Assembly: GCA_964291415.2 (NCBI GenBank)
Contig: OZ219920.1
Coordinates: 896,001 to 960,000 of the forward strand
Length of the DNA stretch: 64,000 bases
Direction of reading: 5' to 3'
Source: Alphaproteobacteria bacterium
Lineage (GTDB): Bacteria > Pseudomonadota > Alphaproteobacteria > SP197
The notes below the pieces were generated by a model, which saw nothing but the letters and a program-made list of their open reading frames with translations, made no database searches and was not told where the DNA came from. Below are positions 1,390 to 57,535 of this stretch, piece after piece (within the stretch, counting starts at the first letter, position 1; each line of letters starts with the position of its first letter). The position numbers were made by a program, and so were the translations under genes.

Positions 1390-3471
1390 CTACTTCATGG
1401 CCGGTTCGATGACATGGAGCTCGCGGCGGAACGGAACGTCACCTGGATCGGCGTCCGTCCCGAGTTCGCGGGCATAGCGATGGCCCTCGTAGACGGCGGT
1501 GGCGATGATGCCGGGCGCCTGGCAATCGCCAATCCTGCTGAGCGTGCGGATGCCGGTATCGGACGAGTCGTCAAGAGTATGCACGACTTCATGGTAGAGG
1601 CCGTCTTCCGGCAGGCGTGCCGTCACCATGACGACACCGTCGACCGGCAGCGTCACCTCGCGGCGGCTCAGGCTGTCATGAAGCAGCACCTGACCGGTCT
1701 CCACGGCGAGAAGGGTCGTGTTGGCATGGAGTTCCACGCCGGCATCATGAAGGCGTTCCTGGTTCGCCTCGTGTTCCAGCGTGTGGATCTGCCAGGAGGC
1801 AACAGTCGCCATCGGTGTGGCAAGGCTCACGTCGTAGCCTTCCGTGCTCAACAGCTCTGCGAGCACGCTCGCCATGTAGTAGTGGTCGTCGTCGAACAGC
1901 AGCACCCTGCCTTCCGGTGGCCGGCGCCCCTCGAGTATGTCGTCGGGCGTGAGGACGTGCGCTGCGTCGCTCCCGGGAACAGGTGAGGTGAGGCGCCGGC
2001 CGCAGCCATCGCGCCGCCACGTGGCTCCGGTCGCAATCGCCACGTGTTCGGCCCCAAGTTCGAGAATCTGGTCTGCGTCGAGGCGGCTCGAGCGGTAGAC
2101 GTCGACATTGGACATGCGCTGAATCTGGCTCATCCGGTAGTCGCGCACACGGGCCCAGGCAGCGAGCCCGGGCAACCGGCTCTCTCGGGTGACGCGCCCG
2201 CCGAGTTCTTCGTCTGCCTCGGCCAGTGTGACGCGGAATCCCCGCAGTCCGGCCGCCCGCGCCGCCTCGAGTCCGGCGGGTCCGGCGCCGACGACGAGCA
2301 GGTGAGCGTCCGATTCTGCCGATGGCAGGGTTTCAGGATGCCAGGCCTTGCGCCATTCCTCGCCGAAGGTCGGATTCTGGGTGCAGCGTGCCGGTGCCGT
2401 CATCTGGGTCCAGCCGATGCAGACATTGCAGCCGATGCACTCGCGAATGTCGTCAAGGCGGCCTTCCTCGACCTTCTTCGGGAGAAACGGATCGGCAATC
2501 GATGGCCGCGCGGCGCCGATCAGATCGACGATGCCGCGGCGGATTGCCGAGACCATGGCATCGGGAGACGTGTAACGTCCGACCGTCGAGACGGGCTTGG
2601 TCGTCACCTGCTTCACGAAGGCAACGTAGTCCTCCTGGTAGCCCTCGGGCGCGAACCGTGACGTCTTCGAATCGTTCGTCCAGTCGCTGACGTTGACATC
2701 CCACAGGTCCGGGAGTTCGGCCATCATCTCGACTGCCTCGCGACCCTCGGCGTGCCACTCGAGGCCGTCCGGTCCCATCATCTCGTCAACGGCAAAACGC
2801 ACCACGACTCCGGTGGTGTCACCGACGGCTTCCCGCGTCTCCTCGAGCAGTTCGCGGAACAGGCGCAGTCTGTTCTCGAGGCTGCCGCCGTATTCATCGG
2901 TCCGCTGGTTGTGGCGTCGCGCCAGAAAGTGGCTCGGTACGGTTCCGTCGTGTCCGGCATAGACGATGACAATGTCGAAGCCGATGTCGCGTGCCCGGAT
3001 GGCTGCCCGTCTGTGCGCGCGGCGGTACTCGCGGATATCCGCGAGGTCCATGGCACGCGCCTGGATCGGTGCAAGGCTCCAGTTCGCCGGCCGGTGCATC
3101 GGGCCGATCGGGATCTCCCGGCTGTAGAGATTCGGTGTGTCGTGGCCGTTGTGGACGAGTTCGATTCCAGCGAGGCTTCCGAACCGGTGCACCTCCTCGG
3201 CCATGCGGCCCAGATAGACCTCGTCGCTGGTATCCCACATGTTCGTTTCGGCGTAGGGCGAGGCGTCACCGCTGGCCAGAAAGTCGCACTGTTCAGTGCA
3301 GACGATTCCCCAGCCGCCTTCGGCCTTCGCACCCCGCATGCCGATCATCGCATTGGGATAGACCCGGCCCATGCCGTTGCAGTGGGGCACCTGGTAGAAT
3401 CTGTTGGGCGCGGTGACCGGGCCGATTGCGAGTGGTTCGAACAGGATGTCGTAACGTGGATCGCGGGTCAC
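1390..3471 (-). CDS. Histamine/trimethylamine/dimethylamine dehydrogenase family flavoenzyme (histamine dehydrogenase-like)
   Basis: 693 aa; [13 protein letters not shown] (Cys for covalent FMN), [10 protein letters not shown], 4Fe-4S motif [14 protein letters not shown], Rossmann [15 protein letters not shown] start overlaps the upstream stop (GTGA). Confidence 0.9.
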
Positions 3472-4280
3472 AGGTCGTCCTCCCGGCTTGTGCTCACGGG
3501 GCGTTGTCCGCGCAGGTGATGGGGGCAGTGCTCACCCGTCCCGAGGACCGCTACCATGGCCTCCCAGGTCTCGACCTGATGGTCGACGAACTCGGCACCG
3601 TATCTCTTTTCCAGGTCAGCGCGCGCCGCGCCCGTCAGAAAGTCGAGTTCGCGGTGGCTCACCTCCCTGTACCAGGGATTGCGGTTGGTCAGACTCACGT
3701 TCACGAATCCTGCACCCCTGAGGGCCGCTTCGTAGTGGTCTGGCGAGGCCATGGAGAAGTCGAGCCCTTCCAGTTCGATGTAACGCGCCATCCCGGGGCT
3801 CGGCGTGTCGTCGTGGGAGATCAGCCAGTCCGATGCGGCAAACCAGCCGCCGGGCTCCAGGACGCGGAACACTTCGCGGGCAAGCAAGTCCTTGTCCGCG
3901 ACATGAATGATGGCGTCCTTGGAAAAAACGACATCAAAGCTCCGGTCGGCGAACTCGAAGGGTCCGGGTTCCACCTGCCGTATGGTGACCCGGTCGGCGG
4001 CCCCGGCATCGCGGGCACGCTTGCGCGCCGCGTTGCAGGCCGGCGCCTCGACGTCGATTCCGGTGACATGGCCCGCGCCGTGATCGAGCGCCAGCGAAAG
4101 CGTGATGCCGCCTGATCCGCAACCGATGTCGAGAATGCGGGCACCATCAAGGTCGAGACCTTCGAGAATGCGGGTGACCTCGTCGGGCCCCCCAGGCGAG
4201 AGGTATCCGCTCCCCCACACCTCCTCGAGAAAGGTGATGTAGCCGTCGTCGTAAAGTTCCTCGTCCACGATCTCCTCCAT
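3468..4280 (-). CDS. Class I SAM-dependent methyltransferase (phosphoethanolamine/sarcosine N-methyltransferase-like)
   Basis: [39 protein letters not shown]; start re-picked at ATG 4280 after GGGAG. Confidence 0.85.
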
Positions 4281-57227: not shown

Positions 57228-57535
57228 TGAGAGGCCTGGTCCGGATCAACCCCCGTGTGCTTCTTCCAGCGCAGTCTGAAGATATACCACTCGGCCTCGC
57301 CCAGGTCCGTGAACACCACGTCCTCGTGGAGCGTCACCGGCACACCGCGCTTGCCTGGAAGCTGGGCGAGGCACCACTCCTTGTGAGGCACCGTGTTGAC
57401 CAGGACGTACTTGCCTTCGATGGGCTCCCAGCGCATGACATTGAGCACCTTCTGGAGTTCGGCGCTGTGCGGTCCGAAGGGGTTGCGCCGGAACTCCTCG
57501 GCAAGATCGGTGCGTCCGGGATCAATCTTGTACAT
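57224..57535 (-). CDS. N,N-dimethylformamidase small-subunit-like protein
   Basis: MYKIDP..EEFRRNPFGPHSAELQKVLNVMR..AEWYIFRLRWKKHTG; ATGA overlap with the large-subunit gene. Confidence 0.82.
   Translation of the reverse strand: MYKIDPGRTDLAEEFRRNPFGPHSAELQKVLNVMRWEPIEGKYVLVNTVPHKEWCLAQLPGKRGVPVTLHEDVVFTDLGEAEWYIFRLRWKKHTGVDPDQASQ

Follow-up and report, generated by a model that had tools for sequence, protein, structure and literature searches.

Dimethylformamidases (DMFases) break very stable amides at an unusual iron site of two tyrosines and one glutamate, and only one substrate, the industrial solvent dimethylformamide (DMF), which was first produced in 1893, is well known for them. Here, in a 64,000-nucleotide stretch of an alphaproteobacterial genome (the window, G000:C4:896001-960000; genome of 4.44 Mb in 5 contigs, 64.6% G+C), we describe two loci that together encode three divergent large subunits and two small subunits of this family. 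Their family membership, catalytic residues, subunit pairing and gene coupling can be read directly from the genes. We propose, with moderate confidence, that these enzymes carry out Fe(III)-assisted hydrolysis of imported N-substituted amides, each paralogue acting on a substrate of its own; DMF is probably not the physiological one. The window enzymes are new, uncharacterised members of a family that is itself already known. An initial annotation of the window had placed them in a possible 56-kb system that would funnel their products to nearby formate, amine and one-carbon (C1) genes, and most of that proposed link looks like coincidence.

Genes were called from third-position G+C, and the open reading frames (ORFs) of the window were scanned with Pfam and NCBIfam. 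PF20254 (DMFA2_C) and a LamG-like domain are found in exactly three ORFs, with PF20254 scores of 292–302 bits for all three proteins against a gathering score of 27; the presence of these DMFase-family genes in the window is far beyond chance. The five genes of the two loci are as follows.

8527–8853 (+): S1, small subunit of 108 aa, a member of small-subunit profile A2; an alternative start at Met7 (position 8545) fits the consensus MYxIDP.
8850–11063 (+): L1, DMFase-family large subunit, PF20254 (E = 8e-90) plus LamG; the longest ORF runs from 8808.
52756–54990 (−): L2b, large subunit with a GTG start, PF20254 (E = 1e-86).
54987–57227 (−): L2a, large subunit, PF20254 (E = 2e-88).
57224–57610 (−): S2, small subunit, 128 aa from the first ATG, profile A2; probable start 57535.

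The three large subunits are 48–49% identical to one another in pairwise comparison (alignment A1). In a search of solved structures, for which L1 and L2a but not L2b served as queries, both proteins matched the DMFase large subunit 6lvb_A (E = 3e-142 for L1 and 5e-145 for L2a), and the top match of L1 was an N-acetyl-(R)-β-phenylalanine acylase (8i5a, E = 1.5e-146), with 6lvb next. The subunit composition given by the initial annotation—three divergent large and two small subunits in two loci—is borne out by Pfam, by these structure matches and by the small-subunit profile.

The structural study of Paracoccus DMFase (Arya et al. 2020, PMC7686228) describes an Fe(III) bound by Tyr399, Tyr440 and Glu521, inactive Y440A, E521A and H519A mutants, a large subunit that is inactive alone, and a pocket constricted by Phe693 from a neighbouring large subunit. 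The PDB mutant entries 6lvd (Y440A) and 6lve (E521A), included in our alignment, identify the tyrosine of GLSxYD as Tyr440 and the glutamate of HPEY as Glu521, and counting along the alignment places Tyr399 in AYxN (LAYAN), His519 in HPEY and Asn547 in AANGMYW. All five residues are invariant in L1, L2a and L2b, with the motifs AYSN/AYAN/AYVN, GLSTYD/GLSTYD/GLSMYD and HPEY. The initial annotation had noted that AYxN, GLSxYD and HPEY are kept in all of the large subunits and had proposed an alignment to the DMFase structure; the motifs hold in the alignment, and all three iron ligands align, as do His519 and Asn547. Judged by these residues, the three proteins are predicted enzymes of the DMFase family with the metal ligands intact.

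The same Tyr, Tyr, His, Glu and Asn are present in 111 of 113 aligned large subunits, the three window copies included. This survey combined the genome's own copies with those of 80 related loci—collected with L2b as the query from one genome per species, mostly of uncultured Alphaproteobacteria—and those of three annotated plasmids that supplied the reference sequences (P. aminophilus pAMI2 dmfA1/dmfA2, Methylobacterium sp. DM1 and B. vietnamiensis G4). The sole exceptions are two atypical paralogues of the window's own genome, L007 9114-10724 (536 aa) and L008 9183-11312 (709 aa), which have Arg at the Tyr440 position and retain Tyr399, His519, Glu521 and Asn547; the short atypical form was present in 5/5 relatives checked. 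The position equivalent to Phe693 varies: L1 and L2a have Phe there, L2b has His, and the 113 rows taken together have His (51), Phe (30), Ile (13) and others.

The small subunits S1 and S2 are 42% identical (E = 1e-27). Single-sequence searches of the PDB gave only E = 0.12 between S1 and the DMFase small subunit and no match for S2, neither being significant, whereas profile A2, built from 62 small subunits, matches the DMFase small subunit 6lvb_B with E = 1e-9 over residues 28–126 of 132. The longest ORF of S2 starts at 57610, and the start is probably 57535, the end coordinate given in the initial annotation and the Met of 'MYKIDP', because the A2 family consensus begins there. Stop and start codons overlap at every junction (ATGA for S1/L1 and for S2/L2a, GTGA for L2a/L2b), and each locus is therefore translationally coupled; the most likely start of L1 is the ATG at 8850 that overlaps the S1 stop. 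L2b is without a small gene of its own, its GTG start overlapping the stop of L2a. The genome holds six small-subunit genes, each adjoining a large gene, and one of the six is fused in frame to its large gene (L006 8882-11593, C2:589881-592589; 903 aa, small domain at residues 50–163). A choline-dehydrogenase-like gene lies downstream of this fusion.

Pairing of small and large genes extends across the related loci. A small-subunit homologue is found in 68 of the 80; of the other 12, 8 are truncated by the end of a contig. In 10/80, small and large subunits are encoded in a single ORF. One small gene precedes two large genes in L009–L018 and L079 and three large genes in L019, L021, L024, L027, L028 and L029, and an S2-type small gene stands directly before the L2b orthologue in L022, L023, L025 and L031–L034. 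As S2-type genes occur upstream of L2a or L2b orthologues in relatives, S2 is a plausible partner for both window subunits. The DMFase literature that we found, accessible in part, contains no description of operons with several large genes or of natural fusions; both are noteworthy and bear on how the small subunit works. Separately, in 7 related loci from 6 dereplicated groups (L018 5230-7177, L021 1660-3609 and others), groES and groEL occur as a pair upstream of the small gene, no more than about 1.6 kb away, with other ORFs intervening in L021.

The family is expanded throughout the lineage. The initial annotation recognised the expansion, which is real, and understated its extent: the genome has 11 PF20254 matches, 9 of them canonical, and high copy number is lineage-wide. 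Of the 40 relatives sampled, 24 belong to the same family, and every one of these has a match (median 8, range 1–14; copy numbers 1, 2, 2, 4, 4, 4, 6, 6, 7, 7, 8, 8, 8, 9, 9, 10, 10, 10, 11, 12, 12, 12, 12 and 14), and 3 of the 16 genomes from other families have one match each. In a sample of 401 genomes spread evenly over the class, 70 match at E ≤ 1e-30, and the four with at least 9 first-look candidates are the window's own genome, one of the same family and two of one other family. According to a preprint survey (10.1101/2021.03.18.435917), the large subunit occurs in 4.5% of 20,762 complete genomes, with a median of 1 copy and a maximum of 9. Homologues are widespread: of 8,000 candidates scored, those with E ≤ 1e-30 form at least 2,948 protein clusters, and DmfA proteins are reported from ocean metaproteomes. 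In a same-genus genome, one PF20254 copy (G014:C1:2220303-2221588) is split, has a TGA in frame and probably represents a paralogue in decay.

To place these copies, a FastTree phylogeny was built from 96 large subunits, leaving out 9 near-duplicate rows, 7 partial sequences and the short paralogue L007; its support values are local ones, and the tool flagged a number of long branches. The two validated DMFases (P. aminophilus and Methylobacterium DM1) form a clade of their own with support 100, the remaining 93 canonical rows lie across a branch with support 94, and the atypical L008 is placed at the midpoint root. Identity to P. aminophilus DmfA2 is 38% for L2a, and the copies are in general about 38–43% identical to the validated DMFases; by the tree, no window or genome copy is an orthologue of a validated DMFase. 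L2a and L2b fall in different deep clades and are therefore old paralogues rather than the products of a recent duplication. The sister of L1 is another paralogue from its own genome, 62% identical; outside the genus, one homologue is closer (G041, 74%, on a short contig) and all others are 51% identical or less.

Like DmfA1A2 (Paracoccus sp. DMF 6LVB, P. aminophilus pAMI2 and Methylobacterium sp. DM1), the window proteins have a three-domain large subunit with PF20254, the Tyr399/Tyr440/Glu521 ligands, His519 and Asn547, and a small gene immediately upstream. They differ in sequence (~38% identity, separate clade) and in number (11 copies per genome); moreover, the window loci are without an adjoining LuxR-type regulator gene and are chromosomal, not on plasmids flanked by insertion sequences, and locus 2 combines a single small gene with two large ones. 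A further relative, the AceAB acetamiprid amidase of Pigmentiphaga sp. D-2, compared by description only, is likewise a two-subunit DMFase homologue, although with a xenobiotic substrate. A review (PMC11573777) reports no activity of AceAB on DMF, and the substrate has therefore switched within the family. The suggestion in the initial annotation that the natural substrates are other than DMF fits both the tree and the known non-DMF members, AceAB and the β-phenylalanine acylase. The DMFase literature that we found, accessible in part, reports no natural substrates.

A link to import comes from periplasmic binding proteins. Two genes of this kind flank the amidase loci.

58153–59466 (−): SBP2, an orphan PotF/PotD-like periplasmic binding protein (PF13416), upstream of S2 across a 543-nt gap.
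12976–13908 (+): a paralogue of SBP2, N-terminally truncated, 2 kb downstream of L1, with 45% identity to SBP2 residues 178–437.

SBP2 matches PotF with 64 bits, below the cut-off, and is retained upstream of S2 in L009–L013, L016 and L017; its nearest paralogue (75% identical) adjoins another DMFase-like gene at C1:708k. The truncated gene, without about 150 N-terminal residues, is probably a gene remnant. Proximity was tested for 10 PF20254 loci of the genome against 5000 random placements at distances of 6 kb and 12 kb, a test chosen post hoc. PF13416 binding proteins lie within 6 kb of 4/10 loci against a random mean of 1.14 (P = 0.02) and within 12 kb of 5/10 (P = 0.045). Another DMFase-like paralogue is part of a PotABCD-like operon that has an agmatinase gene and two DMGDH-like genes nearby. 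The polyamine-type transporters named in the initial annotation are real PotD/F-like genes (40426–44446 and 58153–59466), with PF13416 enriched near the amidase loci as given above.

On the basis of these observations we propose that both loci specify cytoplasmic amidohydrolases of the DMFase family with a mononuclear 2-Tyr-1-Glu iron centre. Each large, catalytic subunit is produced along with a small structural one through translational coupling. Locus 2 yields a single small subunit and two catalytic subunits of ancient divergence, and the genes are part of a lineage-wide toolkit of 8–14 such enzymes per genome. The paralogues may differ in substrate, each hydrolysing a different N-substituted amide that would be taken up by an ABC importer, in many cases a PotD/F-type one. 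With the assistance of Fe(III), the imported amide would be hydrolysed to an amine or amino acid plus a carboxylate, to be passed to the genome's many amine-oxidising and demethylating enzymes. Other paralogues of the genome adjoin an amidase-signature enzyme, an MttB-family protein and two DddP-like proteins, or a choline-dehydrogenase-like protein, a diversity that fits varied substrates in amine and osmolyte metabolism rather than a single pathway. A lineage with 8–14 divergent, apparently active copies beside importers is a good place to seek natural substrates and a possible source of new catalysts for hindered amides.

Several points weigh against this proposal. The assignment rests on sequence, and the amide substrates of the window enzymes are predicted; Phe at the Phe693 position of L1 and L2a is as in DMFase, and small formamides may be substrates. 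The binding-protein enrichment is modest and was tested post hoc; only 14 kb separates two of the four loci that show it, and SBP2 is without an adjoining permease or ATPase. Small subunit aside, no neighbour is widely conserved across the family in 56 dereplicated groups of loci, the most frequent being SDR (14), SBP_bac_5 (11), ABC ATPase (9) and GroEL, GroES and GFA (6 each). The only RNA-labelled run, X5, touches all 30 bins of 44001–64000, and one of its contigs, of 567 nt, spans the S2/L2a junction; as the run consists of contigs only, it cannot show transcription or co-expression.

A more specific extension is conceivable, although we regard it as doubtful: that operons with one small and two or three large genes encode hetero-oligomeric iron amidases that share the small subunit, their pockets completed in trans by the partner's Phe693 equivalent (Phe in L2a, His in L2b), and that the 8–14-copy family is a toolkit for hindered amides derived from a host or from seawater, such as N-acyl or N-formyl polyamines and N-methyl tertiary amides. 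If true, this would supply the long-missing natural role of 'dimethylformamidases'.

The genes to which the initial annotation had connected the amidases are the following.

1390–3471 (−): amine dehydrogenase of the histamine/trimethylamine dehydrogenase family, an iron-sulfur flavoprotein (3k30, E = 5.5e-227; trimethylamine dehydrogenase 1djn, E = 9e-165).
19048–23510 (−): NAD-type formate dehydrogenase (FDH), alpha subunit (19048–21993; TIGR01591, 750 bits) plus a NuoE/F-like subunit.
29490–30422 (−): FGase-family amidohydrolase (PF05013, E = 1e-73), sharing a separate operon with a CocE/NonD hydrolase and a Dpp-type ABC system.
44407–44967 (+): GFA-family protein (PF04828, 81 bits), at the end of a PotD-B-A-like operon (40426–44446) and 8 kb from L2b.

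The amine and formate dehydrogenase calls are genuine. The former aligns with 3k30 over residues 6–685, including the 'vphCNG' Cys, which we take to be the 6-S-cysteinyl-FMN site, and 'CigCnvC...rC' (CxxCxxC...C), presumably the 4Fe-4S motif; the FDH alpha subunit exceeds the TIGR01591 cut-off of 666.25 and is single-copy in the genome. The N-formyl amidohydrolase call stands at the level of the FGase family and no further, since 29490–30422 meets only the broad PF05013 and, tried as HutG, scored 125 bits against the TIGR02017 cut-off of 278.75. The GFA protein, a putative Gfa and candidate C1 sink, has the PF04828 domain, one of 18 such domains in the genome. Other families are expanded as well, with 20 GCV_T domains and 47 PF13416 binding proteins. 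Amine dehydrogenase paralogues at 49% identity or more number 10 in the genome and 6–11 in each of five same-genus relatives; 1390–3471 is the sole one of the 10 within 10 kb of a PF20254 gene, and its orthologue lies 6.6–6.7 kb from the L1 orthologue in 4/5 same-genus genomes.

The idea of a single system spanning these genes finds no support in their arrangement and conservation. They are spread over separate operons of either strand and interspersed with unrelated genes, namely those for an ankyrin protein, ribBA, peptide ABC systems and methyltransferases, and among the 80 related loci FdhA is near the amidase genes in only one (L082), as is the FGase-family gene (L015). In the proximity test, amine dehydrogenase (0/10 loci at 6 kb, P = 1.0; 1/10 at 12 kb, P = 0.43), GFA (1/10, P = 0.30; 2/10, P = 0.14) and GCV_T (0/10, P = 1.0; 1/10, P = 0.64) are no closer to the 10 PF20254 loci than under random placement. 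An association with C1 and amine genes survives in one respect: in the related clade L018–L030, GFA directly follows the L2b orthologue in L018, L021 and L025, and after GFA come SBP_bac_5, cupin, SDR, an amine dehydrogenase paralogue and a DDAH/ADI-like gene. The amine dehydrogenase paralogue lies a few kb past the L2b orthologue or GFA in L019, L020, L021, L024, L027, L028 and L030, and in the same-genus genome G002 three large genes stand in tandem, with GFA about 200 bp from the last. All that remains of the funnel is this link of locus 2 to GFA and amine dehydrogenase, confined to a single related clade; FDH, the FGase-family gene and most of the other genes are probably independent modules.

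Two candidates were rejected in this comparison. The window amine dehydrogenase is not the specific orthologue of that in L021, to which the four best-scoring paralogues of the genome are equally similar (54–56%), and a GFA gene beside the paralogue at C1:841k is not repeated in 5 same-genus genomes and is probably there by chance. In the window lineage, the interval of about 8 kb between L2b and GFA holds an ADP-forming acyl-CoA synthetase, two CmcJ/NvfI-family oxygenases, a CMP/dCMP-type deaminase, a PhyH dioxygenase and a methyltransferase-like ORF; this cluster (45370–52661, +), convergent on L2b, is kept in close relatives, but the more distant clade lacks it between L2b and GFA.

Two other explanations of the amidases were weighed. 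They could be N-substituted formamidases that send formate to FDH, methylated amine to the amine dehydrogenase and formaldehyde to GFA, a single C1 funnel parallel to DMF pathway I (DMFase, dimethylamine dehydrogenase, and formaldehyde and formate oxidation), each enzyme class of which is represented in the window. The identity of the iron ligands, His519 and Asn547 with those of DMFase, the Phe at position 693 in L1 and L2a, the membership of the window amine dehydrogenase in the trimethylamine/dimethylamine dehydrogenase superfamily and the single-copy FDH 12 kb from L1 all agree with this, as do GFA and an amine dehydrogenase paralogue flanking the L2b orthologue in clade L018–L030 and GFA adjoining in G002. 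Yet that clade-level synteny may be merely inherited, and the four-way tie with the L021 amine dehydrogenase ties no particular paralogue of the genome to it. The copies lie in a clade apart from the validated DMFases, and, unlike a pathway, the window genes are neither organised nor conserved together, with FdhA and the FGase-family gene each in 1/80 loci and amine dehydrogenase and GFA no nearer than chance allows in the genome. FDH was found in all 952 DMFase-bearing genomes, according to the preprint (Li et al., 10.1101/2021.03.18.435917), and its co-occurrence is therefore uninformative. We consider a formamide funnel very unlikely.

Alternatively, at least L1 could be an acylase of N-acyl amino acids or peptide-like compounds, working with the divergent CocE/NonD hydrolase and peptide-type transporters and releasing an amino acid rather than an amine. 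Its closest solved relative, the Burkholderia N-acetyl-(R)-β-phenylalanine acylase (8I5A, 8HUY and 8I59, the biology of which we take from the PDB entry titles alone), is of the same family, and its Tyr, Tyr, His and Glu positions align with those of L1. A CocE/NonD hydrolase gene is divergently adjacent to L1, the B. vietnamiensis G4 homologue adjoins an amino-acid ABC system, D-amino acid dehydrogenase and alanine racemase, and two paralogues lie beside Dpp-type systems. The acylase, however, barely outscores DMFase for L1 (493 versus 479 bits), has GLATYN where the window proteins have GLSTYD, and is listed in its entries with one kind of chain only (A, B), whereas L1 has a coupled small subunit; the nearest paralogue of L1 (62%) adjoins MttB-like and DddP-like genes instead. 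Such an acylase is, in our judgement, unlikely, and hydrolysis of diverse imported N-substituted amides is the reading that we retain.

Other features of the window were noted in passing. Between the two amidase loci, 14553–17813 (+) encodes a eukaryote-like protein of 1086 aa, nearly all of it ankyrin repeats (13 Ank_2 stretches). The interval from the amine dehydrogenase to L1 contains genes for a PhyH-family dioxygenase and a Rieske oxygenase (4364–6638), and the best match of the Rieske protein is a GbcA-like glycine betaine monooxygenase, far below the cut-off. At 88–942 (−), a PIN-domain protein stands beside a DUF7662 protein, likely a toxin–antitoxin-type pair. The lineage is apparently sponge-associated: near-identical pieces occur in sponge-metagenome-labelled runs of two studies, for example of 368 and 251 nt with no differences.

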